Shown: piece by piece, positions 1,787 through 24,336 of the stretch | Layout of the letters: every line of letters starts with the position of its first letter | Position numbering within the stretch: the first letter of the stretch is position 1 | Source of the DNA: a virus | Virus record (IMG/VR): IMGVR_UViG_3300009703_000006 | Span: 1-31,215 of that record | Strand: one strand, 5' to 3' | Length of the DNA stretch: 31,215 nt | Program-made: the position numbers and the translations under genes | Notes under the pieces: generated by a model | The model's database searches: none | Told to the model about the DNA's origin: nothing | What the model saw: only the letters and a program-made list of their open reading frames with translations

Positions 1787-1787
1787 A

Positions 1788-3647: not shown

Positions 3648-3649
3648 AT

Positions 3650-4054: not shown

Positions 4055-4190
4055 TTTTCTTTTTCTTTTTAGGCTTTTCAGTAAAAACATCAGCACCTAA
4101 GTTCTTTAACATTTGTGCATTTTCTTCAATGATTAAAACCTTGAAACCTTTGCTGTTCCAAATTTGATTTTCTAATCCTTTCTTAAACAT
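4038..4190 (-). CDS. Small ORF, 50 aa (MFKKGLENQIWNSKGFKVLIIEENAQMLKNLGADVFTEKPKKKKKNDPSE)
   Basis: Manual translation. It is the first ATG after the terminator at 4203-4231 and fills the gap before the next gene. Below the ORF-track size cutoff. Confidence 0.45.
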   Translation of the reverse strand: MFKKGLENQIWNSKGFKVLIIEENAQMLKNLGADVFTEKPKKKKKNDPSE

Positions 4191-4202
4191 ATTTTATATT
4201 TT

Positions 4203-4231
4203 AAAAAAAAAGGATGGGTAAAACCCACCCC
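4203..4231 (-). terminator. Rho-independent terminator downstream of the 171-aa abundant protein gene
   Basis: Minus-strand RNA reads GGGGUGGGU-UUU-ACCCAUCC followed by a run of 9 U (plus-strand A-run 4203-4211). Confidence 0.8.
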
Positions 4232-4270
4232 TTTTCAACAATTAAACAAAAGAACAATTAAGCAATATTT

Positions 4271-4786
4271 TTAAGCAATAGTCAATCCTGCAATAACTGA
4301 AGCTTGTACTTCATAGCAAGAATATTGTGACTTATCCATTAATTCAATTTGGTATTGGTTCGGATCACCAAACGCTTGACCTGTTTGAGCTATTAGGCTT
4401 GAACCTTCTGCAAAAGCATCAGCACCTAAAGACCAATATTTGCCATTGTTATCTTTAACAATAACAAACAATCTTGCTAATATCATTAATTTTAATTCGT
4501 TACTTTTGGAAGCAGCTAACTTATTTATAGTAAATGCAGCAACATTATCATAGAATGATGTGCCACCTACTGAGTCAATAGTAGCAGTAGAAGTTAAACT
4601 TCCTGCTTCTTTCTTTAACTCATATCTATAAAAGTTAGTTGCACCAGCTTGTGTGATTGCTGTGATTTCGTGGTTGGCAAGTGTAAAAGCAGTTACATTA
4701 TCTCTTTCAGAAATAAGCACTTCTTCAATACCACCAATGCTATCACTACAATCTCTTGTAAATCCTGAAGCTAATGGGCAACTCAT
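4271..4786 (-). CDS. Abundant virion protein, probably the major tail (tube) protein, 171 aa (start at MSCPLASG)
   Basis: Bracketed by two strong terminators directly after the capsid gene. The track ORF's extra 10 N-terminal codons (to 4816) overlap the terminator hairpin, so ATG 4786 is preferred. The pattern GGIEEV...FYRYE...VIVKDNNGKYWSLG...TGQAFGDPNQYQIEL recalls tube-type proteins. A decoration protein is not excluded. Confidence 0.5.
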   Translation of the reverse strand: MSCPLASGFTRDCSDSIGGIEEVLISERDNVTAFTLANHEITAITQAGATNFYRYELKKEAGSLTSTATIDSVGGTSFYDNVAAFTINKLAASKSNELKLMILARLFVIVKDNNGKYWSLGADAFAEGSSLIAQTGQAFGDPNQYQIELMDKSQYSCYEVQASVIAGLTIA

Positions 4787-4801
4787 ATTTTTAAATTTTA
4801 T

Positions 4802-4831
4802 AAAAAGGTGGTGCAATTAAACACCACCCTT
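4802..4831 (-). terminator. Rho-independent terminator directly after the major capsid gene
   Basis: Minus-strand RNA has stem GGUGGUG / CACCACC (plus 4807-4813 / 4822-4828, extendable with one G-U pair) and an 8-nt loop, followed by UUUUUAU. Confidence 0.8.
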
Positions 4832-4842
4832 AATGTTAATAA

Positions 4843-5787
4843 TTATGCTAATTCAAATTCAACCACTTGGTCACCGAATGCTACATTTACAGCTCTACGA
4901 AATGCCATAGTCACCTTATAAATTCGATCATTAGGATCATACCAACTACGAACATCATCGCTTTCTTCATCAGGCAAGTCAACACCAATGTAGATGTTTG
5001 AAGCTCTTAATAAGTAGCAGTTACCTTCAGTAATTCCTGAAAGACCAGGTGTTGCAACAACAGTTACATTAGGAAATCCAATTAATGGAAGTTCAGCAGT
5101 AAAATCACCATCAACAACATAATGGAAATAATTACCATCAGCTATTGCTTTTTGGTATTTTAAGAATGTGTCCATTCCTACAAATAATTTTAAATCATCT
5201 GCATCCATAATATCTTCAGGCATAACTTCTACCATTCCTGTTAAGATACCAATTACATTTGCTGAAGTAATACCTGTTGCAATAGTAATACCTGTTGGAT
5301 TACCATTTACAGGTGAAGCAGCACCAATCAATTTAACAAGACCATCATACTTGTTTAAGTTAGCAGTACCTGAAAGTGTATCTCCTTGCCAATCAGCAAC
5401 TTCAATAGCTTTTTGTACTCTTGCAACCTTTTGAGAAAAGTATAACTCTTCAAATGGAATTTCTTCTTTCTCACCAGTCAATCCTTGTCTAAGCATTGTA
5501 GCTGTGTATTTAGAAGCCAAGTCAGTCATACATAAATCTTCGTGAATTGCAACAGCACCAGGTGTTAAATCTCTTTGAGATAAAGTAGTAGAACCATCTG
5601 CTGATCTTGAACATCCATCAGCTTGAAATACAACATCTGTATCTAAGATGTTAATAGTTGTTGTGGTCTTAACACCAGGCTGCAAATTTGCATACTGTGA
5701 TAAACGACCACCAGCAACAGATTTTACTATCAAATCCATTGCGTGTTGTTCTGTATAGGCTGGTAAGCCTGAAACATCAAAACTCAT
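4843..5787 (-). CDS. Major capsid protein, 314 aa
   Basis: Follows the acidic scaffold gene and is followed by a strong terminator. Size and sequence character are typical of HK97-fold capsid proteins. Confidence 0.8.
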   Translation of the reverse strand: MSFDVSGLPAYTEQHAMDLIVKSVAGGRLSQYANLQPGVKTTTTINILDTDVVFQADGCSRSADGSTTLSQRDLTPGAVAIHEDLCMTDLASKYTATMLRQGLTGEKEEIPFEELYFSQKVARVQKAIEVADWQGDTLSGTANLNKYDGLVKLIGAASPVNGNPTGITIATGITSANVIGILTGMVEVMPEDIMDADDLKLFVGMDTFLKYQKAIADGNYFHYVVDGDFTAELPLIGFPNVTVVATPGLSGITEGNCYLLRASNIYIGVDLPDEESDDVRSWYDPNDRIYKVTMAFRRAVNVAFGDQVVEFELA

Positions 5788-5803
5788 AATTTTTAATTTT
5801 AAT

Positions 5804-6508
5804 TTAGTTAATAATATTTTTATTCTTTAGGACTTCGATAATGTCCTTTTTTTCATTCTTTAATTTAGCAAAACCACTTCTTTTTTTCTTTGCAGTTTCT
5901 GTGGTTGGCTTTTCCACTAACTTTTCAGTTAGTTCTAATAAACCTTTAAAAGCAGTTTCAAGTCTTTCAACCTTGTTTTTAAGTTCTTCATTTTCTTCAC
6001 TTAAAGTTGCTTCCATTGAAAACACTCTTTCAGTTACAATGCTTTCGATAATCTTTTTAGCTTCGCGTTCTTGTGCTTCATTCAATGGCTTTTCAATATT
6101 CATTTCTTCTTCTTCATCATCAGCCATTGGTTCTTCAGCCTCAACTTCTTCAATTGCAGTAATTACACCACCTTCAGTTGTTATAATTCTACCATCTGCA
6201 AGTTCGTGGTTTCCATCAGGAGCAGGAACCATTGCATCATCAATAGAAACAACAACTGCACTACCGATATTTACATCAGGTTCTGCAACTGCTACACTTC
6301 CATCTGCAAGAACAATATCTTCAAATTTTTCTTTAACAGCTTCAGCCATTTCTTCTTTGGTGGTTTCTTCAGTTGTTTCTTCAACAACCTCTTTAGTTTC
6401 TTCTGCCTTGATTGTAGCTTCAAGGACTTCTTTGGTGTCAGTAGTATCAACACCTTCTTCTTTAAAGACATTCTTGATGTCTTGAAATAATGTTTTTAGA
6501 TCATTCAT
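5804..6508 (-). CDS. Scaffolding protein, 234 aa
   Basis: Very acidic, Glu/Lys-rich, coiled-coil-like sequence (TKEVVEETTEETTKEEMAEAVKE..., EENEELKNKVERLETAFKGLLEL) located between the protease-like gene and the capsid gene. Confidence 0.75.
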   Translation of the reverse strand: MNDLKTLFQDIKNVFKEEGVDTTDTKEVLEATIKAEETKEVVEETTEETTKEEMAEAVKEKFEDIVLADGSVAVAEPDVNIGSAVVVSIDDAMVPAPDGNHELADGRIITTEGGVITAIEEVEAEEPMADDEEEEMNIEKPLNEAQEREAKKIIESIVTERVFSMEATLSEENEELKNKVERLETAFKGLLELTEKLVEKPTTETAKKKRSGFAKLKNEKKDIIEVLKNKNIIN

Positions 6509-6521
6509 TTTAAAATGGTTT

Positions 6522-6540
6522 ATAATTAGTATATATAAAA
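6522..6540 (-). promoter_or_regulatory. 19-nt motif TTTTATATATACTAATTAT (minus-strand reading), exact second copy at 16248-16266. Candidate late promoter or translation element
   Basis: Exact 19-nt repeat seen in the sequence. This copy lies 14 nt upstream of the scaffold ATG, in a 41-bp intergenic gap. Confidence 0.4.
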
Positions 6541-6549
6541 AAATTGTAT

Positions 6550-7152
6550 TTATTTCACTTTTTGCGAAATTTTATATTTCTTAATCACTTCTTTTATTTT
6601 ATTTATTACTTTTTCAGGTAGTTCAAATTCTCTATCTTGAGCAAATAATCCTTCTACACTAAAGCCACGAAATTCACCACTTTGTACTTGTTGCCAAACT
6701 TCATCATTGTCAACTTTCATAGAACCAAACCAACTGCCATCAGGCACAGTTTCTGCCCATTCAGGAGCTTTCATTCCACGCTTACTATCTACTATAATGC
6801 TTTCAATAACATAAACACCTTCAGCCAAAGCATTGGAATTGTGCATTAAATTCACCTTTGAGCTAAAGCCATTTTTCATAAACTTGTTTACAATCCTTTC
6901 AATAGTATCTTTTCTAAAGACTACATAAAAGACTTTGCCTGTATCATCAAACCTTGCTATTGGTAAATCAGCTATCATAAAATAACCACTTACAATTCGC
7001 TTTTCTTCATCTTGTATTTTAAACTTTAAGTCTATTGGTTTTTGTTCATTAAATGCCATCCAATTACTTTGTATTGCTGGACTATCTACAAGTGCTATCA
7101 TTTCAACACCACTTTCATCTTCTTCATCAATTATTAATTCAAATATTTTCAT
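6550..7152 (-). CDS. XkdF-like putative prohead protease, 200 aa
   Basis: Lies just upstream of scaffold and capsid genes. The pattern MIALVDSPAIQ...VNLMHNS...VIESIIVD...GSWFGSMKVDNDEVWQQVQSGEFRGFSVEG resembles the PBSX XkdF family. Confidence 0.6.
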   Translation of the reverse strand: MKIFELIIDEEDESGVEMIALVDSPAIQSNWMAFNEQKPIDLKFKIQDEEKRIVSGYFMIADLPIARFDDTGKVFYVVFRKDTIERIVNKFMKNGFSSKVNLMHNSNALAEGVYVIESIIVDSKRGMKAPEWAETVPDGSWFGSMKVDNDEVWQQVQSGEFRGFSVEGLFAQDREFELPEKVINKIKEVIKKYKISQKVK

Positions 7153-7158
7153 AATATA

Positions 7159-9129
7159 TTATTTTATAGTTGCTTGGTTTTCTATTACAGCAACCTTGTT
7201 CTGTGTATTAGTTATATCAGTTTCAGTTACAAATACCTGTGTTGCTTCTTGTGGTACTAAAGTGCTTGTGTTTGTTATTGCACTAAGTGAAGGGGCAGAA
7301 GCACCAACGCCACCAACTGAACCACCACCACCAATTGATCCACCACCACCTGTCTTAAACTTAGCAATAGATGAAGCAACAATTGAAGCTATGCCTGTAG
7401 CTGCTCTTATCTTAGCAGCAGCAACTAATGGTACTGCTATTGCTTGACCACCTGGTATTGTTGAGTAACTTGCAAATATACCAGCAATTTCACGCTGAGT
7501 ATTCACAATGATTTCACCAATGGCAAGAGCTTTATCAGCTATAAATAAAGCATTGGCAAGTTTTTCATTTTCACCAGCCAATTGTGTTAACCCAGCAATT
7601 AAACCTTTGGCAGCATTTAACTTAGCATCTTGTAAAGCTTGATCACTTTCTAATACTTTTTGATTATATTCTATTTGTGCATCATCAAGTTCTTTTTTAT
7701 CTTCAGCAGCCTTTTTATCTATTTCTGCTTGTGCATCTGCTTTGGCTTGTTCCTGTTCAAGTTCTTTATCAATTGCCTCTTGTGATATTTGTGCAATGTT
7801 TTCTAAATGTTGAAACTCTAATAATTCTTTTTCAGCATCACTTAATTCTTTGTTTTCTAATTCTTTTTGTAGTTTAAGATTTTCAATATTAATTAAAGCT
7901 TCTGCCTTTTCCCTTGCATCAAGGACATCTTCTGCATCTGCTTCTTTTCTTGCTATTAATAAATCAAATATTGCCTGTTCTTCTTTTTTTCTTTGTTCCT
8001 CTTTTTCTTTGCTTTCTTCTTTTCTTTTTGTTCTTCTTTCTTTTATTGCTTCAACTTCAAATACTAATAAATCGGTTTCTGCATTTTCTATTGCTTGAGT
8101 TGATAATATTTGTTCTTGGTCTAAGTTTAATAATTCTTGTTTTAATTTTACAAGTTTTTCATCAGCTTTTTGAAGTCCTGAAACTAAAGAGCCTAAACCT
8201 TCAAGCCTTGCAATCTCTAAATTAATTTCTTGTTTTTGTAATGCAATTCTTTGTTCAGTTAATTCATTTTGTTGTTTAGTGAAATCTTTTATAATTTGTA
8301 ATTTTTGCTTTTCAAGATCAAAAGTGTTTTTTCCTTGTGCCTTTGCTAATCGGATTTCATTATCCATATTAGCAATTCTATTGTTATGAATTTCCTGCTC
8401 CCTTTTGGCTGAATTTTCAAGTTGCTTTAATCTTTGTTTCCTAAGTTTTCTTTCTTCTTTTAATCTTGCCTTTGCTCTTGCCTGTGCCTTTTCTTCACTA
8501 TCATCGTATAGCCCTAACCATTTTAAGCCACTTTTAATACCACCAACAAGTTCATCAAATTTTGCTACTGCCATTCCAATAACTACTATTATTGCACCAA
8601 AACCCGAAGAAATTAATGCAAGTCTTAAAAGCTTCAAGGCAGTAGTTCCAGCTCCAACTACAAAATTATAAGTGCCTTGTGCTGCCGTTAGAATACCCTG
8701 AACAATAGCAGTCTTTTTTAATGTATTATTCCATAGCTTTTGAAAAGAAATAACACCTTCAATAGTGCCTTTAAATGCCATTGTCACACCAAGAGCTGTT
8801 TCTATTCTTTTAGCAGTTTCACCAATAGCACTATCCTCATCACCACCTAACAATATAAATGCAGCAGTCACATCACCAACAGCACCAGCAACACTTCCAA
8901 GCTCACTTGCTACTTGCTCATTGTCAAGTGCTTCCATTGCAAGTTCAGTATTCTTGATCTCTTTGTTAACACCTACTAATTCATTCTTTAATTCATTAAA
9001 AGCCTTTGAACCTAATGGCACTTTCCTAAGTTCTTCATTGAGTTCTGTTGCTCTATCTTCTAATTGTCCAAGTGTTCTTTCACTTTTCTGAACATCAACT
9101 TCTAAGTCTATTACTACCTTTTCTGCCAT
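7159..9129 (-). CDS. Tape-measure-like protein, 656 aa
   Basis: Contains hydrophobic Gly/Ala-rich segments (LTAAQGTYNFVVGAGTTALKLLRLALISSGFGAIIVVIGMAV), a long central coiled coil and a Gly-rich C-terminus (TGGGGSIGGGGSVGGVGA). Its position is atypical: upstream of the head genes and not adjacent to the chaperone-like gene. Confidence 0.6.
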   Translation of the reverse strand: MAEKVVIDLEVDVQKSERTLGQLEDRATELNEELRKVPLGSKAFNELKNELVGVNKEIKNTELAMEALDNEQVASELGSVAGAVGDVTAAFILLGGDEDSAIGETAKRIETALGVTMAFKGTIEGVISFQKLWNNTLKKTAIVQGILTAAQGTYNFVVGAGTTALKLLRLALISSGFGAIIVVIGMAVAKFDELVGGIKSGLKWLGLYDDSEEKAQARAKARLKEERKLRKQRLKQLENSAKREQEIHNNRIANMDNEIRLAKAQGKNTFDLEKQKLQIIKDFTKQQNELTEQRIALQKQEINLEIARLEGLGSLVSGLQKADEKLVKLKQELLNLDQEQILSTQAIENAETDLLVFEVEAIKERRTKRKEESKEKEEQRKKEEQAIFDLLIARKEADAEDVLDAREKAEALINIENLKLQKELENKELSDAEKELLEFQHLENIAQISQEAIDKELEQEQAKADAQAEIDKKAAEDKKELDDAQIEYNQKVLESDQALQDAKLNAAKGLIAGLTQLAGENEKLANALFIADKALAIGEIIVNTQREIAGIFASYSTIPGGQAIAVPLVAAAKIRAATGIASIVASSIAKFKTGGGGSIGGGGSVGGVGASAPSLSAITNTSTLVPQEATQVFVTETDITNTQNKVAVIENQATIK

Positions 9130-9140
9130 GATCTAAACTT

Positions 9141-9539
9141 TTAATAATTTTCAGCAACATAGCTATCTATTGTTGCCTGTATTTCATCCTTCATACTTTT
9201 GGTATAAATACCAGATACTCCTAAACTGCTATTTGTATTTTGAGCAGTTAACCAACACCCATTATTTAACTGTTCTTGTAAGTCTTTGATATGTGTTTCT
9301 AAAGCAAAAACTTCAGCATCTGTATATACTCCATTTAATACATCTATATATCTATCTGAAGTAAAAGATAAAAGCCATTCTTTGCCATCTTTAATTCTAT
9401 ACTTGTACTGTATTAGGTATAATTCTTTAATTGTATCAGCATCAGTAATTTCTGTAAATCCACTTGGCTTAGTTAATTCAAATTTAATTGATGGTTCACC
9501 ACTTGAAACGTTATCTTCTATGTAAAATTTTCTTGCCAT
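9141..9539 (-). CDS. Hypothetical tail-module protein, 132 aa (start at MARKFYIED)
   Basis: ORF track 9141..9617. The first 26 codons overlap the upstream gene, whereas ATG 9539 sits 14 nt after the upstream stop. Confidence 0.6.
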   Translation of the reverse strand: MARKFYIEDNVSSGEPSIKFELTKPSGFTEITDADTIKELYLIQYKYRIKDGKEWLLSFTSDRYIDVLNGVYTDAEVFALETHIKDLQEQLNNGCWLTAQNTNSSLGVSGIYTKSMKDEIQATIDSYVAENY

Positions 9540-9552
9540 TTTTTTTAATATT

Positions 9553-10134
9553 TTAATAATAAGTATAAGTGTACCATCTATCTTCTGTATGGTTATAAAT
9601 AAATTGTACCGATGCACCTTTAGTTAAATCAAAGTCTGAATTATTAGCTAACATAATTCTATTCGCTGCTGCACTTCCACTATCGTTGTGCTTGAATTTT
9701 AATTTCTTATTTGTACCTGAATTAATTATTACTACGATTCTATTAACTCCTGCACTTGGAGCTACTATTCCTGTAAAATCTCTATCGTGTGAACCTGGAT
9801 TTAAAAAATGAACGTTATAAGTTGTAGGGTCATAATCATCAAAATCAACAGAGACACCACCACTCTCTGTATATTCTCGTATTTGCGAAGTAGGTATTTG
9901 TGTTAATCCTAAAGCATTAGCATAGTTATAAACATCCTGAGCCACGCCCGTAGGGTCATAAGTAGAAGCTAACATATCGCCACTTACAGCACCACCTAAA
10001 ATTGTATCACTTCCTGCACTATTTCTTAAAGTATATTTATTAGAGTTATTACTATCTATAAATATGTAAAACTCGCCACTTGCAGGGTTACCAAGTGTGC
10101 TTCCATTTTCTGTTGTTATTACTAATTTTCCCAT
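9553..10134 (-). CDS. Small tail-fibre-like protein, 193 aa
   Basis: ORF track. Gly/Ser/Thr/Asn-rich and beta-rich sequence in the tail block downstream of the 1101-aa protein. Confidence 0.5.
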   Translation of the reverse strand: MGKLVITTENGSTLGNPASGEFYIFIDSNNSNKYTLRNSAGSDTILGGAVSGDMLASTYDPTGVAQDVYNYANALGLTQIPTSQIREYTESGGVSVDFDDYDPTTYNVHFLNPGSHDRDFTGIVAPSAGVNRIVVIINSGTNKKLKFKHNDSGSAAANRIMLANNSDFDLTKGASVQFIYNHTEDRWYTYTYY

Positions 10135-10139
10135 TATTA

Positions 10140-10289
10140 TTATTTTAAAATTAAATCGCCATAAATTATTATAGTTCCCTGTATTGTTAAGCCACCATAA
10201 TTAATCATTTGTCTGTTATCTATTATTGTTAAAGTGCTATTAGTTCCTATCTCTTGAACTCCACTATATATGTCTGGTAGATATGTCAT
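10140..10289 (-). CDS. Small ORF, 49 aa (MTYLPDIYSGVQEIGTNSTLTIIDNRQMINYGGLTIQGTIIIYGDLILK)
   Basis: Manual translation. ATGA overlap with the stop of the 1101-aa gene, and it ends 5 nt before the next ATG. Fills the gap. Confidence 0.5.
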   Translation of the reverse strand: MTYLPDIYSGVQEIGTNSTLTIIDNRQMINYGGLTIQGTIIIYGDLILK

Positions 10290-13200
10290 ATTATTATAAA
10301 ATTAGTTCCATCATATTGAACAGTATATGTTGTATACAAAGCAACTATATTTAAAGTTGCACTTCCGTCTATTGTTTTACCACCCGTTGTTCTGGTCTGC
10401 AAAGTATTTAAAGAATCTATTTTTTTAAAATTCCAAAACTTACCCTGTTCTGCATCATTCGGCAAAGTGATAATAATATTCCCTCCACTTGTATCAGCTT
10501 CATAAGTCGTCACGCTCAAATCTGCCGTAACGCTTGAGTTTATTTGCACAACACTTCCCTCTCCTTTTATTACTCCATTTATATAAGTCACTCCAGAATT
10601 TACAACTTGAATATCATTCGTATTTATCAATGATACATCACTTGCTCCTTCTACTGAATTTCCATTACCTCGAATAAATACATTTTCAGATCCTGCAAAG
10701 ATGAAATTGTTATCTCCGTTAATATCTGCATTTTTAACCGAAGGATCAATGTAATTGTTTTCTCCTTTTACGCATATATTTCTGTCGCTATGGAAGTTTC
10801 CATCAATTAGTCTTGCTTCTCCTCTTTTGAAATATGGAGCGTCTTCCGTACCTATCTTAGCAGTGCCACCAGTAGCTGTTGCAGTATCAGGCACAAAAGC
10901 ATCAACATCTTTAAGCTTTAAAAATTCACACTTAGTTATTGGATTGCTTGGATTGTAGTTTTCTATTTTATTTAACCTAAAGTAAGCACCATCAAAATAG
11001 TATTGGTTTCTAAATGATAAGTTTCTAATATCTGATGGTCTTAAATAAAACCAACCTCTTACAATCTTTGAATTTGTATCTGTAATTTCTTCAATGAATT
11101 TTTTATAATAAGCATTGTAAAGATTATTATCACTTAAAGTAATATCATAAAAAGTGTCATCATAATATATCTCATTAGTTAATCCAAAGTTAATATCAAC
11201 AGTAGGACTAAAAGCATCGTCTAAATGTCCTGAATATGGGTATTGAATTTCGTCTGTATTTCCTGCTAATATGCTTCTATGCGACCAGGTAATTAAATTA
11301 TCTTTTAAACCACCCCATTGTAGTATTCTAATATTGCTTTCAGTTCTAACATAGCCATTGTTTTGATCATACTTTTTAATAGCTGGAATAACTCTATCAT
11401 AATATAATTGTCCTACACTTGGAGTTGGTGAAAATATAATGTTTGTCTTATATTCATTATTAATAAAATCGTTTTCAATTTCTTCTTTTCTTTGTCCGTA
11501 AATTTCATTCCATGTTGTATTATATAATTCATTATAATAATCTTTATCCTGCTTGTAAGTGAATAAATATTCTTTGCTGTCTAAAGCACCCATTGGCAAG
11601 TATTGAAGCTCTTTGCTTACGTCTAATTTTTGTGACCAGTCTTGAGTTATATTATTATAGAAGTCATCTCTTGGTTCTATAAACAAATTCTTTTCATTGT
11701 TCTTATCAGGTTCAATGTATAAGTTAAACATCTTTACAATACTCATAAAGAAATCCCTTTGCTTTATCTTCTTTGGTATTGATGCATTCATATCAATTAA
11801 ATTGCCTTCAGCATAAGAGTTGTTAACTACTCTATTTCTAAAAACACCACCAGCAACATTTAAACTTATATTTCCAGTATGCATTGTTAAATGATTAACT
11901 GCACCAAGACCTTTAAACAATGGCAATGGATTAAATGTCCAAGTAGTAAAAATTCCACCTTGATATTGATTAAATAATTCATTAACAACAAATTCATCAC
12001 TAAATGTTTTTGCTGCAATTTCTATTTTAACCTTCTCATTAGTTTTAACAAATAAGTTAGATACAGTTACTATGTATCTATTAGGTTGTGTTGATGTTGT
12101 TCTTGGATCAGTGCTTAATTCACATATTGCTTCTATATCACCACTAAAATCAGGTATGTTAAAAAGCTGAAAATTTGTAGTTTCTTTTATATAATCATTG
12201 TCAGGCAATGTTGTTCCTGAAGTTGTTACAGTTGTTGCTGGTGGTATTGTACTTGAATAAGTGATATTAAATTTTTCTATTGCTACAATTCCAGTAGTAC
12301 CTAAAGCACCACCAATGGGATTTCCAGCATTGTCAGTATGAACTATTGCTAAATTACCAACTATCGCAGAACAACATTCTAAGTCAATTGCAGAAGCACC
12401 ACCACCATATTGTAAAGGTTCAAAAGTTCCTGTTAAATCAACTTCAAAATAAAAATCATAAGTACCATCAGCATTACAAGTATATTCACCAGTAGATGGA
12501 TCAAATACCAAGTTTGGATCATTCTCAACACTCATAGTAACATCATCATAATCACTTGGTGAAAACACTGGTGTTGTTGCCTCAGAAAGTAGTTTAGTTG
12601 TTGTTGATGGTGGACTAACATATTCAATAGTATTAGCATCAAATAGTCTATTGTTTATTGTTGTATCACTTAAATTAAATTCTTTGCTGTTAAATGGTAT
12701 TATTAAATCTTCAAAAGGTGAGCTTAAAAAGAATGTGCTTTGGTAAGTAAAACCAGCAGCTTCAAACATTCTATCAATATATTCTTTAACAAATATTGCT
12801 GGAAATATTTGATTGACTGAAAACTGTATTGCTGTGAAGTTACTACTAAAGCCATAGTCTATTAATGGATATACATAACCAACGCCAGGAGTTGCTGACC
12901 AAGAAGTCTGCTGTATTGCTTTTGTCCAATTATGGTTTAAGTCTGACCATAGCATTGTAGTATCATCTAATTCTTTATCTCCTAATTCCTTTATAAAATT
13001 AGCAGTATTACCTACAATAGTACACTCGTAGACAATATCATCATTGTCTAAAATATTGATTTGCTTTAATTGTAAATATCCTTCTACCTGTATTTCTCCA
13101 TCTACTAAATAAAGTACATCAGTTTTTAAGTTAGGATTAAAAGTGTTTAAATCAATATTAACTTCAAAGATGTTTTCAAATACCTTTCTTAGTCTTTTAC

Positions 13201-13591
13201 TGCCTGGTAGTTTAATTGTCTTACTATAATCTGACTTTCTTTGATCAGGCTTTGCAATGTCTGAAATATTAAAAGTAATATTAGGATTAAGGCTTTCTAA
13301 TAGCTCTATCCTTTCATTGATTTGCTTATTTATCTTATAGCCTATTGGTGAACTGCCTGTTGGAAATATATCCTTATTAAGTGTTATTTCAGTATCACTA
13401 TTAGCTTTTATTACTCTTGCTGTTTGTTGTGTTGATGTATTAGTTACAAGATCACCTTTACTTATTGGTGTTGCACCTGTTAGAAACAAAGCACCTGCAT
13501 CAATTAATTTGAAATCATTGTCACTTGTAGTAGTGCCACTTACCACAACATCTTTAGCAATATAGCTTATATATAGTTCTTCTTTTTGCAT
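10286..13591 (-). CDS. Large tail/host-recognition protein, 1101 aa, with a beta-helix-like C-terminal repeat region
   Basis: Largest ORF in the window. The C-terminal part has Asn/Gly-rich repeats (NICVKGENNYI...INGDNNFIFAGSENVFIRGNGNSVEGASDVSLINTNDIQVVNSGVTYINGVIKGEGSVV) typical of fibre or spike domains. Confidence 0.65.
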   Translation of the reverse strand: MQKEELYISYIAKDVVVSGTTTSDNDFKLIDAGALFLTGATPISKGDLVTNTSTQQTARVIKANSDTEITLNKDIFPTGSSPIGYKINKQINERIELLESLNPNITFNISDIAKPDQRKSDYSKTIKLPGSKRLRKVFENIFEVNIDLNTFNPNLKTDVLYLVDGEIQVEGYLQLKQINILDNDDIVYECTIVGNTANFIKELGDKELDDTTMLWSDLNHNWTKAIQQTSWSATPGVGYVYPLIDYGFSSNFTAIQFSVNQIFPAIFVKEYIDRMFEAAGFTYQSTFFLSSPFEDLIIPFNSKEFNLSDTTINNRLFDANTIEYVSPPSTTTKLLSEATTPVFSPSDYDDVTMSVENDPNLVFDPSTGEYTCNADGTYDFYFEVDLTGTFEPLQYGGGASAIDLECCSAIVGNLAIVHTDNAGNPIGGALGTTGIVAIEKFNITYSSTIPPATTVTTSGTTLPDNDYIKETTNFQLFNIPDFSGDIEAICELSTDPRTTSTQPNRYIVTVSNLFVKTNEKVKIEIAAKTFSDEFVVNELFNQYQGGIFTTWTFNPLPLFKGLGAVNHLTMHTGNISLNVAGGVFRNRVVNNSYAEGNLIDMNASIPKKIKQRDFFMSIVKMFNLYIEPDKNNEKNLFIEPRDDFYNNITQDWSQKLDVSKELQYLPMGALDSKEYLFTYKQDKDYYNELYNTTWNEIYGQRKEEIENDFINNEYKTNIIFSPTPSVGQLYYDRVIPAIKKYDQNNGYVRTESNIRILQWGGLKDNLITWSHRSILAGNTDEIQYPYSGHLDDAFSPTVDINFGLTNEIYYDDTFYDITLSDNNLYNAYYKKFIEEITDTNSKIVRGWFYLRPSDIRNLSFRNQYYFDGAYFRLNKIENYNPSNPITKCEFLKLKDVDAFVPDTATATGGTAKIGTEDAPYFKRGEARLIDGNFHSDRNICVKGENNYIDPSVKNADINGDNNFIFAGSENVFIRGNGNSVEGASDVSLINTNDIQVVNSGVTYINGVIKGEGSVVQINSSVTADLSVTTYEADTSGGNIIITLPNDAEQGKFWNFKKIDSLNTLQTRTTGGKTIDGSATLNIVALYTTYTVQYDGTNFIII

Positions 13592-14878
13592 CTAAAATCT
13601 TTGTCTGTAATTATCAACTCCAAACTCTAAGTTAACTTCCAAATTAAATAGCTTGTCTACATTACTTCTTTTTTCTTCCCAATTGCCTTCAATGTTTTGT
13701 ACTGTAATTCTTTGCCCATTTTCATATAAATAAATCTCAGGACTTTCCAACATCTCAAGCAACCAATTAAAAGTATTTACATCTACCCAATCAGAAACAA
13801 GCTTCATCTTTGGCATTGATTTGGTATAATATTGCACTTTTTGTTTGTCAGCTAAACTGTAAACTATGCTGCCACCACTATCTAAATTTTCAGGATTTTG
13901 TTTATAATATTTCCTTTCTATATCTTCAGTTCTTCTGCTGACCTTTGTAAAGTTAAAACAATCAAAGCCACCAAGTGAATTAAGAAACTCCAACCTTCTA
14001 ACTTCATACCTACATTCAGTATCTACATTAAAGTATATTTCTTCACTTACTACGCTTGAAATTGTATCTAATAATATCATCTTGTAAGATGCTACACTAC
14101 TTGTAATAACAGGTGGAGTGCCAATAGAAAACTGTGCTGGATTAATGTTGTTTATACTATTAGGTGCAGATGGTATTTTAAGCATATATTTAGAACCTAA
14201 TGAAGTAAGGTGTGTTATGTCTATTTCAAAGGTACTAATGATACTGCCTGAACTATCATAAGTTATATATTGTGTCCTATCAACAGGATTAGAAGCATTG
14301 TCATACAAAAAGTATAGCCAACCTTCATCTGTTAATTCTACACTTTGATTATCTGACTTATTTGCTCCTGATCCTTTCGGAGCATTCGTTAACCATTTTC
14401 TGCTTATCGTATTATCTGTATAATTAGTATAATAATTAGCTACTTGCCAATCATAGAAGTTTACCACATTGCCTCTATAATTAGGTAAGCTTCCATTGAA
14501 TACTATTATAGTTTCAATTTCTTGATCTGCAAATTGTGTAAGCACTCCAGCAACATCATACTCTTCACCAACCTTTATAGTAAATTCTTTATAAGAGTTT
14601 GGATTATCAGTAAATCCATCAGCAGTTGCTGTGGTGTTTATTGTGCCTAAGTCAGTTTTTAAATAGCTTTCACATATCCCGTGAACATCAGCCCTACCAT
14701 AGCCATTAGGATCGGCTGGTACTTTTAATCTTGCTACTTGTGTTGCTCCATCATATACATCGAATAAATATTTAAATCTACTATTAGCAATAGATGTGCT
14801 TGAAGCAACATATTCAATAGGATTGTAAACACTTCTATATTGTTCAGGTATGTAATTAAGTGGTGAATTAATAGCCAT
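13592..14878 (-). CDS. Tail structural protein, 428 aa
   Basis: ORF track. Abuts the 1101-aa gene with no spacer and shares one nucleotide with the upstream gene. Function inferred from context only. Confidence 0.5.
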   Translation of the reverse strand: MAINSPLNYIPEQYRSVYNPIEYVASSTSIANSRFKYLFDVYDGATQVARLKVPADPNGYGRADVHGICESYLKTDLGTINTTATADGFTDNPNSYKEFTIKVGEEYDVAGVLTQFADQEIETIIVFNGSLPNYRGNVVNFYDWQVANYYTNYTDNTISRKWLTNAPKGSGANKSDNQSVELTDEGWLYFLYDNASNPVDRTQYITYDSSGSIISTFEIDITHLTSLGSKYMLKIPSAPNSINNINPAQFSIGTPPVITSSVASYKMILLDTISSVVSEEIYFNVDTECRYEVRRLEFLNSLGGFDCFNFTKVSRRTEDIERKYYKQNPENLDSGGSIVYSLADKQKVQYYTKSMPKMKLVSDWVDVNTFNWLLEMLESPEIYLYENGQRITVQNIEGNWEEKRSNVDKLFNLEVNLEFGVDNYRQRF

Positions 14879-15444
14879 TATTTCTTTTTAAATATGTTTT
14901 TAATTTCTTCAGTTGTTGCTGTTCTTCCAGCAGTTGCCAAGTCTTTTTTAAGTAGTTCAAATATGTCACCTTGTGTTATTGTGCTATAAGCCTTATCCCA
15001 AAATGGTCTTGGTTTAATACCTTTTTGAAATATGCTTTCTCTTACTGCAAATGGATTAATCCCTTTCCTTTCTGCCCATTGTCGTAAACTTGCACCATCA
15101 ATGCTACTAACATTAATTGGTGGTTTCTTACCATCCTTCTTAAAGCTATAATCACTTGAAATGCTTTTATCTACTGCACCTGTCACACCTTGATTAAGAA
15201 AGTCATAATAATCAGCCATAAATAAAGTAGCAACAAACTTAGTCCCAAAGAATTTAACAGGCATCTGTACTGATTGCCTTAAATTACCTGTATCAATTAA
15301 ACCTTCACTATCAATTTGACTAAGCACTTCTTGTGTAACTCTAATAGCCAGGTTATTCATAACATCACCAATGCTTTTTGGCTGTGCTACAATACCACTT
15401 GCAGTTTCAAACTCTACTAAGCTATTATGTATCTTATTGCTCAT
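14878..15444 (-). CDS. HK97 gp10-like neck/tail-completion protein, 188 aa
   Basis: Motifs IDTGNLRQSVQ and ...ADYYDFLNQGVTG..., plus the C-terminal LRQWAERKGINPFAVRESIFQKGIKPRPFW, resemble the gp10 family. Confidence 0.5.
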   Translation of the reverse strand: MSNKIHNSLVEFETASGIVAQPKSIGDVMNNLAIRVTQEVLSQIDSEGLIDTGNLRQSVQMPVKFFGTKFVATLFMADYYDFLNQGVTGAVDKSISSDYSFKKDGKKPPINVSSIDGASLRQWAERKGINPFAVRESIFQKGIKPRPFWDKAYSTITQGDIFELLKKDLATAGRTATTEEIKNIFKKK

Positions 15445-15719
15445 TATCTTCTTTTAAGCCTTTGCATTTGATCTTTATGTGCCTGTTGTTCCATTCTTTG
15501 TTTGTCTTTAAAATAGCAACACATATTTAATCCATATACTACATTCCAATTTTGGACTACTTCAAACTTATCTACTCTACTATTACATAAGCTGTCTATT
15601 AATGACCACCACCCCCAGTTGTCTGCAAAGCTATTTCCTGAGCTTCCTTTATCTTCTTCTCTGCTACTTCCATCAAAGAAGTTTTTATAGTTTCCGTTAA
15701 GATTGGTAAGTGATTGTAA
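15444..15719 (-). CDS. Candidate -1 frame C-terminal extension (91 codons) of the 216-aa gene. The predicted frameshift product is about 268 aa
   Basis: Manual translation. The -1 frame is open from 15761 to a TAA at 15446-15444, which overlaps the next gene's ATG as TAATG. It reads LQSLTNLNGNYKNFFDGSSREEDKGSSGNSFADNWGWWSLIDSLCNSRVDKFEVVQNWNVVYGLNMCCYFKDKQRMEQQAHKDQMQRLKRR. Confidence 0.45.
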   Translation of the reverse strand, partial: LQSLTNLNGNYKNFFDGSSREEDKGSSGNSFADNWGWWSLIDSLCNSRVDKFEVVQNWNVVYGLNMCCYFKDKQRMEQQAHKDQMQRLKRR

Positions 15720-16249
15720 AAAAAAACACCTATTGGATAAGCTATTGTTATTGGCATATTGTTAAAGAAATTCTCTGCTGTTTCTTTAATTACTTCACCA
15801 TCCACTTCAGCATCCTTATAACCAAACATAGTTTTATATACAGGTCTGCAAATTATAGTTAATATCTTATGTAAGTTTTCATAAATTACTTCTTCATTGT
15901 TATTGGCTTTTTGTAGTATTTCCATAATATTTACATATTCACCAAATAATAGTTTATTAGCTTCATACTTAAATTCATACCACTTGCCACCAACCAAGAA
16001 CCTTCTTTTCTTTAGTTCTTTAGGCAATTCAGTTTTTAAGAAAGCCATCTTTTTTACAAGTTGATGATATTGCTTAACACTAAGCTCTTTGATCTCTTCT
16101 CTTTTCTTGCCTGTTAATACACATAGTATGTTAATAACCTTACTAACATCATTCATTTCAGTTGCTAAGATTGGTCTTAACTGAATGTAGTGACCTATTG
16201 TTATATCATCCCAGCTTGTAGGTATTTCTATTTCAAACTTCTTTGCCAT
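15599..16249 (-). CDS. Tail-assembly-chaperone-like protein, 216 aa (zero-frame product)
   Basis: First gene after the non-coding hub. The segment RRFLVGGKWYEFKYEANKLLFGEYVNIMEIL resembles chaperone families. It also carries an internal slippery run with an open -1 frame. Confidence 0.45.
   Translation of the reverse strand: MAKKFEIEIPTSWDDITIGHYIQLRPILATEMNDVSKVINILCVLTGKKREEIKELSVKQYHQLVKKMAFLKTELPKELKKRRFLVGGKWYEFKYEANKLLFGEYVNIMEILQKANNNEEVIYENLHKILTIICRPVYKTMFGYKDAEVDGEVIKETAENFFNNMPITIAYPIGVFFYNHLPILTETIKTSLMEVAEKKIKEAQEIALQTTGGGGH
15718..15726 (-). other. U9 run containing a perfect U_UUU_UUU -1 slippery heptamer in the zero frame (GGU GUU UUU UUU UAC)
   Basis: Plus-strand A9 at 15718-15726. 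The zero-frame codon phase was checked against the ...AYPIGVFFYNH... sequence of the 216-aa ORF. Confidence 0.5.
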
Positions 16250-16266
16250 AATTAGTATATATAAAA
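16248..16266 (-). promoter_or_regulatory. Second exact copy of the 19-nt motif TTTTATATATACTAATTAT. Its last two nucleotides are the AT of the ATG at 16249
   Basis: Exact match to 6522-6540. Confidence 0.4.
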
Positions 16267-16282
16267 TTTCTTAATAATTACC

Positions 16283-16358
16283 TTAAACACTATTTTTAAT
16301 TGGTCTTTTAAGTTTTGTAAGCTAACTTAATTAATTAAAATACATTTAAACACTATTT
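16283..16358 (-). repeat. Two exact 13-nt direct repeats AAATAGTGTTTAA (minus-strand reading) at 16283-16295 and 16346-16358, 63 bp apart
   Basis: Seen directly in the sequence. Located 35-110 nt upstream of the first late gene. Confidence 0.7.
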
Positions 16359-16426
16359 ACATTAAGTCTAATCAACTTAAATTACTTTTTAGTATATTCA
16401 TATACATTAACATCTTTAAGTGTCTT

Positions 16427-16576
16427 AAAACGCTTTATTTTAATTTCAAGCAAATTTGTAGCAAACGCTTCTTTTTTTCTTTTTCTTTTTTTCTCTTCTC
16501 TTATCTTCTCTTCTCTTCTCTATATGCTAGACAAAACGCTACCGATTGCCAAGCAAACGCTATAATTTTGCTACAA
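16427..16576. repeat. Repeat cluster. Four (A/C)AAACGCT motifs and a 10-bp inverted repeat flank a 54-nt polypyrimidine (plus strand) tract
   Basis: The four motifs are at 16427-16434, 16462-16469, 16533-16540 and 16554-16561. The inverted repeat is TTGTAGCAAA at 16456-16465 and TTTGCTACAA at 16567-16576. The tract spans 16468-16521, has a single purine, and includes (TTCTC)2-TTATC-(TTCTC)3 at 16491-16520. Confidence 0.8.
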
Positions 16577-16594
16577 TAACAGATAAGAATTAAT

Positions 16595-17791
16595 TTAACG
16601 AATTGCATACCATCCACGATTATGTTGTTTTAAATGGATCAAAGCTACATAACGCAAAGCATCCAGCAAGTGATTAAACTTATCAACAGGCTTTTGTAAG
16701 CTATTTCCATACTTGTCAGTAGCCCATTTATAAGACCTAAACTCCTTTTTTAAATTACTGCTATTAACAACATTTATTTTAAAACGCTTTAATATGTCTA
16801 TTCCATTTAATATACTATCCTTACCTTTAACTGCTGGTTTGCTGTTTAAACCAAGCCTATATAGTTCTTCAATGCTTTTAGGTTCAGCACTATCACAAAT
16901 CACTTCAGCTCTACCTACAATTGGTTTAAGCCTATCTGCCAAGTCCTGGTTAGTTAATCCTTTTTCGTATAGTATTTCTTTTAAATACAATTCATCACCT
17001 AACCTATAAACACCAACACAAGCAGAAGGATCAAGACTATATCCAAAGTCAAGTCCATAGGCTATTAACTTACAATCAGGCATTGTATTAACAAAGCTTA
17101 CATTCTCATATACTAAGCCACTTATATTTCCATACTCACCTAATCCGTATATCTTCCAAAATTCTTTATCAGTATGCTGTAAGTATTCTATTTCTTTAAC
17201 TAAGCTTTCAGGCAGGAAGGTATTATCTTTATAGTTACTTACTATCACCTCAACATCACCAACCTCATTAGAACGCTTTATTTCAAGTTCTTGGTTTATC
17301 CATACTTGCTCATCATCAGGATTGAAGTCTACAAATATCTTGTTTTCTGTTCTCATAAGTAGCTGAAAAAACTCTTGCTTGTATTCAAGTTCATTGGCTT
17401 CATTACAATACAATATGTTTCTTTTAGCACCTCTAAGCTTCTGCTGGTCATCAGCACCTATAAACTCAACCAACCTATTTCTAAACTTAAATGTTTTCTT
17501 AGTCTTGTTGTGTTCTATCTTATCATACCAATTGCTGTTTTTAAGTATTTCAATAAAGTCTCTTATTATTGTGCCATCTAAATTAGTACGATACTTTCTT
17601 ACACTTGTCCACACGCCTTCATATAGGTATTGACCTTCACCATAGTTGCCTGTAATAAGCCACAAGGCACATAATTGATTAATTGAATAAGTTTTGCTTG
17701 ATCTTGTACCACCTCGATTAACTACAATCTTCTTATCAGTATCATAGTTGCGTTCAAATATCTCGGTGCAGTCAATGGTCAGTTCTTCCAT
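16595..17791 (-). CDS. terL: Terminase large subunit (PBSX/Terminase_3-like), 398 aa
   Basis: N-terminal ATPase with P-loop-like VNRGGTRSSKTYS, Walker B-like ILYCNEANE, and a C-terminal nuclease-like half. Follows terS with a 20-nt overlap. Confidence 0.85.
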   Translation of the reverse strand: MEELTIDCTEIFERNYDTDKKIVVNRGGTRSSKTYSINQLCALWLITGNYGEGQYLYEGVWTSVRKYRTNLDGTIIRDFIEILKNSNWYDKIEHNKTKKTFKFRNRLVEFIGADDQQKLRGAKRNILYCNEANELEYKQEFFQLLMRTENKIFVDFNPDDEQVWINQELEIKRSNEVGDVEVIVSNYKDNTFLPESLVKEIEYLQHTDKEFWKIYGLGEYGNISGLVYENVSFVNTMPDCKLIAYGLDFGYSLDPSACVGVYRLGDELYLKEILYEKGLTNQDLADRLKPIVGRAEVICDSAEPKSIEELYRLGLNSKPAVKGKDSILNGIDILKRFKINVVNSSNLKKEFRSYKWATDKYGNSLQKPVDKFNHLLDALRYVALIHLKQHNRGWYAIR

Positions 17792-18251
17792 TTCTGTTTA
17801 TAACTACTTGTATTTCTCTTATTGTTTGGTCTATTTGTGCTTTGTCAGGTTCATTCAATCCAAACATCTTAGCCAAGCTGTCATAAGCACCACGATAATC
17901 TGAACCTTTAACCATTTCTTTAAGCAAATAAAACTTCTGCTTTTCATCCTTAGTTAGTTCTTCTTTACTTGCTAACTGCATTAATGACCTCCAAGCTTGT
18001 ATGATTTCTAAGTAGCCTTTGGCCACGTCTGAACGTGTTATTTCAAATTGCTTTGCTTGTTTTTCTTGTAGCTCGGCAATAGTTGTACTTATGTTATCCT
18101 GAGCCAAGAGGTGACTTGCTTTGACTTTAATTGTTTCAATCTTAGTATTAACACCAACATCATAAGCACGTCTATACGCTTCTGAGCCGTTGCCTGTATT
18201 GACATACTCTTCAGCGAATTTTCTTTGCTTAGGTGTTAGTTTCTTACTCAT
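17772..18251 (-). CDS. terS: Terminase small subunit (Terminase_2-like), 159 aa
   Basis: The N-terminus MSKKLTPKQRKFAEEYVNTGNGSEAYRRAYDVG matches the conserved HTH start of this family. Lies directly upstream of terL. Confidence 0.8.
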   Translation of the reverse strand: MSKKLTPKQRKFAEEYVNTGNGSEAYRRAYDVGVNTKIETIKVKASHLLAQDNISTTIAELQEKQAKQFEITRSDVAKGYLEIIQAWRSLMQLASKEELTKDEKQKFYLLKEMVKGSDYRGAYDSLAKMFGLNEPDKAQIDQTIREIQVVINRNGRTDH

Positions 18252-22783: not shown

Positions 22784-23146
22784 TTATAAACTTAAAAAAT
22801 TAATTAATTCAGTTTCACTTATTTCTTTATTATTTAAAAAACACTTACCATCTTCAAAGCTTGTATTCTCAAAAACTATTAAATGAAAGCCTAAATAAGT
22901 CCAATCATCATCAACACCTTTTATCATCCAATTATTAATCTTATTCCACATCATTTTTTGCCCTTTTCTTGGATAACTATTTCTTGATTTGAGTTCTAAC
23001 ATTATTACTTTTTTAGTTTTCCAATTCCATAAAATAAAATCAATATCACTTGCAGAAAATCCTGTATTTGAGTCAGGTAAATTATTTCTTATCCAATTAT
23101 TAAAAGTTAAATCTCTTATACCGGTAATTTCTTTTCTTGTTGGCAT
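22784..23146 (-). CDS. Small protein with a possible PD-(D/E)xK nuclease core, 120 aa
   Basis: SASDIDFILWNWKTKKVIMLELKS fits a D...(E)xK spacing. Its start overlaps the methyltransferase gene by 31 nt. Weak, motif-only call. Confidence 0.3.
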   Translation of the reverse strand: MPTRKEITGIRDLTFNNWIRNNLPDSNTGFSASDIDFILWNWKTKKVIMLELKSRNSYPRKGQKMMWNKINNWMIKGVDDDWTYLGFHLIVFENTSFEDGKCFLNNKEISETELINFLSL

Positions 23147-24336
23147 ATCATTTCTTTTGCAATATTAAAAGTCTTTTCATCTATTTCAGCAGCTATTATA
23201 TTTCTTTTCTTTTCTTTAGCTGCAATTATTGTAGTACCACCACCAGCAAATGGTTCTAATATTAATTCATTTGGCTTTGTAAACATTTCAATTAAATATC
23301 CTACGCCACTTTTACTTTGTTGCCAATTGTGTGCTTGTTTTTCTCTTTGTTCTGAAATAAAATAATCTTGAATTGTATTGTTTATTTTTTTCTTTCCATT
23401 TTGAAATATTAAAACTGGTTTCCATCTACACATTAAATTAACACCATTAACTATTTGTGTTTGTCCTTCGTGATACATTGCAAAAGTCCAATAATAATCT
23501 AAATGTTCATTCATTCTTTTCATTACTTCAGGTAAATTCATTTGACCACTATAAGCAATACAAAAACCATTTGGCTTTAATACTCTTTTTGCAAATCTTG
23601 AAAGCTTAGACCAGCATTCAATATACTCTTTTGGATAAGGTGGATCAGTAATAATACAATCAATTGAATTATCTTCAATGTCTTTAAATACTTTTTCAAA
23701 GTCACCAAGTCTAAAATCAATATCAATTTCTTTATCTTTGCCTTGCTCAGCTAATATTTTTCTTTCTTCTTTTATAGCTTCTTTCTTTTCTTCTTTCTTT
23801 ATTTCTTTATAAGCAGCATTAATACTTACTTCACCAGTTCTAAGCTTTTGCTTTGTTTCTTCAGGTGCTTTTTCTTGTATCTTTTTTACTTTGGCTATTG
23901 TGTCGTGTGAAACTGCTGCTACTTTAGAAAGTTCTTTTCTTGTTTCTATTGGTTTTGCTTCTGCAGATTTCTGCTTAAGCAATACTCCACCTTGTCCTCC
24001 TTTTTGTTTTTCTTTTGCTTTTGCTTTAAATACATCTTCAAGTTGTAAAGCCAAAACACTTCTTTGATAGTTGCTTAAATTTCTTCTTCCAAATTGGTTT
24101 AATATCATCCACTCTTTTACTGCTTCTTCACTACTAAAACTTTTACTTTCAGTTTCTATTTCTAAGTTCCATTGTTTAGCAATTTTGTATCTATTATGTC
24201 CATCAATAATGTAATTGTTCCAGGTAATTATTTTTTCTCTAATGCCTTCTTCAAGACAATTATTTTCAAGTTGTTTATATTCTTCATTAGTTAATGGTGG
24301 TATAAGGTCTTGAAATTCTTTTAATATTTCCATCAA
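23116..24336 (-). CDS. ParB-like N-terminal domain fused to a beta-class N6-adenine/N4-cytosine DNA methyltransferase, 406 aa
   Basis: ParB motif IIDGHNRYKIA...FGRRNLS. Motif IV DCIITDPPYP precedes motif I EPFAGGGTTIIAA, the order seen in the N6_N4_Mtase family. Confidence 0.85.
   Translation of the reverse strand: MMEILKEFQDLIPPLTNEEYKQLENNCLEEGIREKIITWNNYIIDGHNRYKIAKQWNLEIETESKSFSSEEAVKEWMILNQFGRRNLSNYQRSVLALQLEDVFKAKAKEKQKGGQGGVLLKQKSAEAKPIETRKELSKVAAVSHDTIAKVKKIQEKAPEETKQKLRTGEVSINAAYKEIKKEEKKEAIKEERKILAEQGKDKEIDIDFRLGDFEKVFKDIEDNSIDCIITDPPYPKEYIECWSKLSRFAKRVLKPNGFCIAYSGQMNLPEVMKRMNEHLDYYWTFAMYHEGQTQIVNGVNLMCRWKPVLIFQNGKKKINNTIQDYFISEQREKQAHNWQQSKSGVGYLIEMFTKPNELILEPFAGGGTTIIAAKEKKRNIIAAEIDEKTFNIAKEMICQQEKKLPV

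Follow-up and report, generated by a model that had tools for sequence, protein, structure and literature searches.

Comparative evidence for a widely conserved recoding site at a nine-T run in a phage gene beside the terminase

The lambda-type tail assembly chaperones (TAC) G/GT (described by Xu, Hendrix and Duda 2004 and summarised in PMC5009743) reportedly arise by a programmed shift of frame that yields a short and an extended product with a common N-terminus, from a pair of overlapping ORFs flanked by the major tail and tape-measure genes. Such chaperones bind the tape-measure and major tail proteins, are needed to assemble the tail and do not occur in virions. The two isoforms of Thermus thermophilus dnaX are said to be obtained in another way, by transcriptional slippage (Larsen et al. 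2000, summarised in PMC5009743). On stretches of 9 A or T, slippage of bacterial RNA polymerase is highly efficient, the RNA-DNA hybrid of transcription measures 9-10 bp, and the slippage run of Thermus dnaX consists of 9 T's (PMC5009743). In Shigella the extension produced by slippage in spa13 overlaps spa32 at its start and alters the expression of that gene (PMC5009743). Phage frameshifts such as that of G/GT often work without stimulators (PMC5009743).

The gene described here, hereafter gene X, was found in the window, i.e. the whole stretch of 31,215 nucleotides analysed, from IMG/VR record IMGVR_UViG_3300009703_000006. Its zero-frame ORF (15599..16249, (-) strand; ATG at 16249, stop at 15601..15599) encodes a short form of 216 aa. 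An earlier note on this DNA had pointed to a candidate -1 shift on a U9 run within the gene, and the coordinates agree with its description: codons 174-178 read GGT GTT TTT TTT TAC in the zero frame (GGT at 15730), the nine T's (hereafter T9; 15718..15726, (-); codons G-TT TTT TTT T-AC) forming the shift site and containing a U_UUU_UUU heptamer in the zero-frame phase at 15725..15719 (-). The -1 frame has 105 codons without a stop, from 15761 to 15447, and, again as described, it runs past the zero-frame stop, ending in a TAA at 15446..15444. The 91 codons of this frame that follow the shift (15447..15719, (-)) encode LQSLTNLNGNYKNFFD...WGWWSLIDSLCNSRVDKF...LNMCCYFKDKQRMEQ...KRR. The predicted long form is composed of 177 zero-frame residues and 91 residues of the -1 frame, i.e. 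268 aa, so that both product sizes proposed earlier (216 and about 268 aa) were right. Residues 1-177, which make up the N-terminal domain, are common to the two forms, and the predicted trans-frame junction peptide is GVFF-LQSL (...AYPIGVFFLQSLTNLNGNYK). A stretch of 121 nt (15599..15719, (-)) would be read in two frames, as the short-form tail YNHLPILTETIKTSLME...GGGGH and as the long form's acidic linker. The G-[DG]-G-G motif that terminates the short form is the other-frame reading of WGW. The note had also seen in the extension the filling of the only unexplained gap of the late operon; this is incorrect because 16250..16594 and 4097..4270 are non-coding too.

Over the 25 genes of the window (7614 codons) the -1 frame meets a stop once per 6.7 codons. 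Stop codons are thus very frequent in this DNA, as had been remarked, and the longest other stop-free -1 stretch within any of the same genes is 40 codons. The 105 open codons of gene X therefore do not result from chance (probability ~4e-8). As for the run, composition predicts 0.5 T9 per 31 kb and a single T9 is not rare; that at 15726..15718 is the only run of at least nine within coding sequence in the window. A second T9, at 4211..4203, was considered as a recoding site and rejected: a canonical terminator hairpin has its U-tract there.

A search in which the conceptual fusion of gene X (268 aa) served as query found 113 homologous protein clusters. Nearly all of them are 211-219 aa long, which is the size of the short form, and one protein out of the 113 (P0006, 266 aa) spans the whole fusion. 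The name of the contig that encodes P0006 (L081) bears a '2x' tag, which was taken to mean about 2x coverage, and the other genes of this contig are fragmented. At the DNA level, the run was read in 80 IMG/VR loci picked by peptide patterns far from the shift site and 54-90% identical to X. All 80 have exactly T9 at the V-F-F codons, and the synonymous alternatives GTN, TTC and CTA are never used at the run in these loci. The -1 frame is open for 90-100 codons in each of the 74 loci long enough to judge, while the +1 frame of the same loci closes within 3-15 codons. A pattern scan of metagenomes, which tolerated T8 to T11 at the run, retrieved T9 in 34 out of 34 relevant contigs; another match, L110, is an unrelated sequence that fitted the pattern by chance and was set aside. 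Eleven further lineages (L082-L084, L090-L094, L131-L148) and the cultured phage P12024S also carry exactly T9, each with a -1 frame of 79-94 codons displaying the same motifs.

Altogether T9 is present in ~140 loci, from 90% down to ~20% protein identity, and in two codon registers, NTT TTT TTT TNN and NNT TTT TTT TTN. T7, T8 and T11 are absent from these ~140 homologous loci. Conservation is also visible in the proteins, no part of which is better conserved than the site: among 30 diverse short-form homologues the two Phe codons of the run are the sole invariant columns, and FF lies in the expected region of 109 of 110 short-form representatives. Where apparent exceptions were checked, the aligned position reads xFF[CWYSLF], as a T9 run would allow. 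The comparison with homologues suggested in the earlier note thus comes out in its favour, the U-run and the open -1 frame both being kept in every locus examined. Judged from these alignments, the T9 site is a real, widely conserved and so far unannotated recoding site.

The length of the run bears on what causes the shift. Nine is fixed irrespective of codon phase in the ~140 loci, although coding constraints may contribute: the first T of the run occupies position 2 of a codon for a hydrophobic residue and the ninth occupies position 2 of the codon, for Leu or Phe, with which the -1 frame begins, and such constraints could explain part of the fixed length. Bearing this in mind, we lean slightly towards slippage of the polymerase on T9, rather than of the ribosome, as the probable maker of the shift, because nine T's are kept everywhere though seven suffice for the ribosome, because nine fits the 9-10 bp hybrid of transcription, and because bacterial RNA polymerase is reported to slip well on 9 A/T. 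The genomic frame of gene X would give the 216-aa short form, and entry into the -1 frame at the invariant T9 the 268-aa long form. This entry would be due mainly to slippage of the host RNA polymerase on the nine T's; the enzyme would add one U in a fixed share of the transcripts, whose translation would then be normal. Ribosomes slipping by -1 on U_UUU_UUU may contribute, and their product would be identical.

A shift made by ribosomes, which would slip back one base on the unedited U9 with both P and A sites occupied by tRNA-Phe, at a low, unstimulated efficiency like that of lambda G/GT, keeps a lesser but appreciable chance. One counterpoint to the polymerase is indeed that T9 contains a correctly phased U_UUU_UUU in either register. 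In addition, the wobble positions inside this heptamer are all invariant, the outer T's are partly fixed by the hydrophobic codons, and the output, a common N-terminus plus an extended minor form, resembles that of G/GT. Many tailed-phage sites also lack stimulators (PMC5009743). Nevertheless, no lineage makes do with 7 or 8 T's, and efficient slippage of bacterial RNA polymerase is to be expected on T9 anyway. The elements that assist ribosomal shifts, which phage sites do not strictly need, were not found either. The 98 nt 3' of the run fold with -13.5 kcal/mol (z = -0.35 vs shuffled sequence) and no common downstream RNA structure appears across 19 lineages, which answers in the negative the earlier suggestion of a stimulatory fold; the upstream AGGTG, similar to a Shine-Dalgarno sequence, varies between lineages and is not conserved. 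Of the programmed -1 shift at U9 first put forward, the shift itself and its two products are strongly supported by the comparative evidence; an exclusively ribosomal mechanism is not supported, a run fixed at nine fitting polymerase slippage at least as well.

The two forms could also come from different genomes, replication slippage toggling the phage population between genomes with T9, which give the short form, and genomes with T10, which give the long one. Two contigs, L081 and L085, do have T10 with an uninterrupted long ORF, the first being the source of P0006. But they stand against ~140 T9 assemblies, L081 is apparently of low coverage with other genes fragmented, and selection keeps both frames in the T9 genomes, which therefore give both products from one genome. 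Such phase variation is very unlikely.

The extension carries the marks of translated sequence and lacks an independent start. The -1 peptides align well, as L.SL..LN..YKNLFD, followed by an acidic linker and then by WGWW..LDnLTNSRiDKW....v.kALN.vaYY.DKQkME. Past the zero-frame stop, the three codon positions of the -1 frame have entropies of 0.47/0.44/1.02 (positions 1/2/3), to be compared with 0.58/0.25/1.07 in the bona fide coding region upstream; those of the dual-coding overlap (15599..15719) are 0.71/0.52/0.73. Substitutions were counted along the minimum spanning tree of 65 unique sequences. In the extension 57% of the changes are synonymous in the -1 frame vs 15% expected. In the 121-nt overlap the synonymous excess is modest and roughly equal in both frames, which suggests that both are translated, i.e. 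the short-form tail as well as the long-form linker. By its pattern of codons and substitutions, the extension is coding.

A conserved start codon in the -1 frame was sought across the loci and none was found. In many of them the first ATG/GTG/TTG occurs 65-86 codons into the ~92-codon extension, past the conserved WGWW motif, and the first -1 frame codon is in most loci TTA, which is not a start codon. The nearest -1 stop 5' of the run is only 3-29 codons away (3 codons in two loci); entry into the -1 frame is therefore pinned to T9. Independent translation of a 26-codon ORF beginning MCCYF, which the earlier note had kept as an alternative, is refuted since its ATG is not conserved and the conserved sequence begins about 30 codons upstream of it. 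That there is no recoding at all, T9 being an error or the mark of a pseudogene, or the C-terminal domain being started separately from the MCCYF ATG or from a TTG, is hardly credible: homopolymers are error-prone on some sequencing platforms and a few lineages have a TTG as first -1 codon, called as a start (P0117, P0118), but beyond this general lack of a start the run has the same length in independent assemblies of many projects, contiguous homologues align across the junction, and chance or sequencing error is dismissed because ~140 loci, including the cultured P12024S, keep T9 together with the open -1 frame.

The family is much wider than the loci with T9. An exhaustive HMMER search with P0006 (E < 1e-3) collected at least 860 representative clusters (50% identity), in which three classes appear. 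The first contains short forms of ~200-230 aa whose match stops at the junction (query residues ~175-181), the second pieces of ~80-127 aa that match the extension only, and the third continuous proteins of ~240-270 aa, 22-35% identical, whose alignment crosses the junction and continues into the C-terminal domain. L086, which belongs to the continuous class, has neither a T run nor an open alternative frame, and some lineages have the long form alone, as a single ORF. Because distant relatives carry a continuous ORF and L086 lacks the T run, the long form, with its N-domain, acidic linker and helical C-terminal domain, is by this reading the ancestral full-length protein. We would extend the preferred mechanism only tentatively to the whole: T9 may act as a slippage switch across this aquatic phage family of at least 860 clusters, fixing the isoform ratio and tying downstream expression to it.

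This last point stems from the gene that follows. The TAA of the -1 frame overlaps the ATG of the next gene, as the earlier note had it, in a TAATG (15442..15446, (-)) of which the A at 15444 is shared. The next gene (14878..15444, (-); ATG at 15444..15442) encodes a protein of 188 aa, of unassigned function. Overlap or abutment of stop and start takes one of four recognised patterns (TAATG, ATGA, TAGTG and similar) in 71 of 74 loci; the remaining 3, read from context, have an ATG or GTG overlapping the stop. In the 74 loci 143-176 nt separate the zero-frame stop from the point, further downstream, where the long form stops and the next gene starts. The 188-aa gene is thus probably coupled in translation to the long form. 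Ribosomes in the -1 frame would carry translation on to it and, since the long-form stop overlaps the next ATG, the choice of frame probably sets the amount of the 188-aa protein too. The AF2 model of this protein is mediocre (pLDDT 68), and neither a fold match nor a sequence match was found for it in the PDB.

Upstream, gene X is preceded by TerL, the terminase large subunit (16595..17791, (-); Terminase_3 and Terminase_3C matches), and this is so in every related contig examined. The order of genes is TerS, TerL, X, the 188-aa gene, genes for proteins of 428, 1101, 193 and 132 aa, and the tape measure, then prohead protease, a 234-aa protein, a capsid-like protein, a 181-aa protein, the terminator, a 148-aa protein and portal. 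The tape-measure protein (656 aa; 7159..9129, (-)) matches phrog_1506 (E 1e-11) and its sequence has a coiled coil, stretches of hydrophobic residues and a C-terminus rich in Gly. It is 6.3 kb downstream of X with five genes between, in agreement with the ~6 kb given before.

The same order is found, by synteny, in related contigs and in P12024S (JQ823122, genus Inhavirus), a cultured siphophage of Nonlabens (Persicivirga), and X is placed alike in P12024S and L086. The P12024S homologue is ~20% identical to X and matches the fold of the X model (BFVD I6R9M9, E 1e-8). It comes after TerL and has the T9 and a -1 extension with W-x-W and L-x-x-L-A-Y motifs, its two parts being annotated separately as hypothetical genes 38 and 39; the record mentions no recoding. 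Among the INPHARED phages, neither the region nor X nor the capsid protein obtained a match with megablast and tblastn. TerL is ~35% identical to terminases of Bacteroides and Flavobacterium phages, and the GC content is 31%. Since its gene order is syntenic with that of P12024S, the phage is probably a siphophage of marine Flavobacteriia equipped with a tape measure, the host being deduced from GC and synteny.

The AF2 model of P0006, built on an alignment of 17 continuous homologues, has pLDDT 86 and pTM 0.79. Residues 1-183 form an alpha/beta N-domain and residues 206-265 a helical C-domain; the linker that joins them (190-204) is disordered. Foldseek found no match to it in the PDB with E below 3, and an HMM search of the PDB with the gene X profile found none either. 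When X and 17 homologues were compared with Pfam, PHROG and NCBIfam no TAC match was obtained, the sole family match being phrog_32199, of unknown function. In BFVD the X model matches uncharacterised proteins of uncultured phages, of the Nonlabens phage P12024S and of the Flavobacterium phage 6H; the two matches labelled as TAC are marginal (E 0.017 and 0.064, TM 0.27-0.36).

These results bear on the G/GT arrangement of long-tailed phages that the earlier note had recognised in gene X. X does share with G/GT a programmed shift giving short and extended products with a common N-terminus. It does not lie between a major tail gene and the tape-measure gene, and it shows no homology to TAC families in sequence or structure. 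Membership of X in the G/GT tail assembly chaperones is therefore not supported: it adjoins TerL, five genes away from the tape measure, with no TAC family or fold match. A pair of ORFs of 193 and 158 aa just upstream of the tape measure was considered as the "real" G/GT and rejected: the overlap arose because the ORF lister took an upstream GTG, the start being probably the ATG at 9539, and the homologous genes of P12024S do not overlap. Gene X itself, we infer, acts in the assembly of the virion.

In the output of gene callers and in GenBank records, that of P12024S among them, gene X is split or truncated, and its conserved C-terminal domain is consequently absent or wrongly labelled in the annotations of marine phages, by the thousands. 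The T9 site also offers a clean natural comparison between polymerase slippage and ribosomal frameshifting, for which a cultured phage-host pair exists. What makes it clean is the fixed nine-T run, its two registers, and the sister lineages that code the long form directly. With a two-isoform design like that of G/GT, no known fold and a location beside the terminase rather than the tape measure, X hints that control of isoform ratios by recoding goes beyond the canonical chaperones in the assembly of tails or virions. If polymerase slippage at T9 is true, we know of no earlier case of widespread, deeply conserved RNA-polymerase slippage in phage virion assembly. X would then be a structurally novel morphogenesis protein, possibly a non-canonical class of tail chaperone, and the slippage family would include cultured siphophages of Flavobacteriia.

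Compared with lambda G/GT, X is likewise a late gene of a long-tailed phage with a tape-measure protein, with a conserved -1 shift, short and C-terminally extended forms sharing their N-terminus, and no obvious stimulatory structure. The differences concern first the location, X following TerL at 6.3 kb from the tape measure, and the geometry of the shift, which would occur 39 codons before the zero-frame stop and leave a 121-nt dual-coding overlap, longer than that of G/GT. They extend to the proteins, X having no similarity to TAC families in sequence or solved structure, and to the site, an invariant T9 in the case of X while the G/GT heptamer is variable. Finally some X lineages have the long form only, as one ORF.

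Likenesses to slippage systems were also found. In Shigella flexneri homopolymer slippage, known there and proposed here, leads to a C-terminal extension in spa13, mxiE, mxiA and spa33; where the extension ends it overlaps the next gene's start, the expression of that gene being influenced in Shigella, and the operon builds a length-controlled tubular machine. The Shigella system is however one of bacterial (type III) secretion, not of a phage, and its proteins are unrelated to X. Thermus thermophilus dnaX is a replication gene, while X belongs to the structural module of a phage and its slippage is putative; in addition the long form of dnaX is what its genomic frame encodes, the short one arising by slippage, whereas the genomic frame of X encodes the short form. 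Both nevertheless have exactly nine T/A in the coding sequence, both make two isoforms with a common N-terminus from one gene with no need for an RNA structure, and in both cases the homologues of other lineages use another solution.

Besides the nine-T run (T9) proposed as the -1 shift site of X, the gene with a 216-aa short form and a 268-aa long form, the window contains a single further T9, which serves as the U-tract of a minus-strand intrinsic terminator of textbook form (4203-4230; GGGTGGG-TTTT-ACCCATCC followed by T9). This terminator is located between the genes of 181-aa and 148-aa proteins, past the capsid gene block.

Ten T's are found in two of the related contigs, L081 (the contig name of which is tagged '2x') and L085 (1602-2339), and with this T10 the long form is encoded by one uninterrupted ORF. 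In the alternative frame of L085 a 59-codon short-form tail persists, ending in GDGG. The T10 runs may reflect errors of assembly or natural variants that are rare, or they may mark lineages in which the polarity is reversed.

The minus-strand intergenic region between the gene of the terminase large subunit (TerL) and X is 345 nt long (16250-16594) and combines repeats with a box before the ATG: AAATAGTGTTTAA is present twice, at 16358..16346 and 16295..16283, while the TATATATACTAAT box lies immediately 5' of the ATG of X. A similar TATATATACTAA is found ahead of the X homologue in contig L084. The region may act as a late promoter or have a regulatory role.

Directly upstream of the tape measure gene, two minus-strand ORFs of 193 and 158 aa (9141-10134) show an apparent overlap of 65 nt. 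This arrangement resembles a pair of the G/GT type (lambda tail assembly chaperones), a reading that we rejected: the overlap is artefactual, produced by an upstream GTG, and the second gene likely starts at ATG 9539, with a product of 132 aa.

The 619-aa portal protein (1788-3647, minus strand; phrog_33693, E 1e-43) displays two matches unusual in portals, a C-terminal winged-helix HTH_24 (residues 463-506) and a weak one to a helicase PHROG. Near the endolysin is a 245-aa protein (30445-31182, minus strand) that contains a Laminin_G_3 domain of the concanavalin-like lectin kind (E 2e-17); it may function in receptor binding or as a decoration protein.

The order of the late-gene block (777-18251, minus strand) is non-canonical: TerS (terminase small subunit), TerL, X, tail-tip-like genes (188, 428 and 1101 aa), and the 193-aa and 132-aa genes are followed by tape measure, prohead protease (Peptidase_S78_2), scaffold-like protein and capsid, the portal coming much further on. 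This order is syntenic with that of the cultured Nonlabens phage P12024S (JQ823122), which suggests that the window phage represents a marine Flavobacteriia siphophage lineage without close cultured relative. In P12024S the recoded gene (23136-23830) appears in GenBank as two separate hypothetical CDS, P12024S_38 and P12024S_39, which are joined in the -1 frame by a T9 at about 23578-23586.
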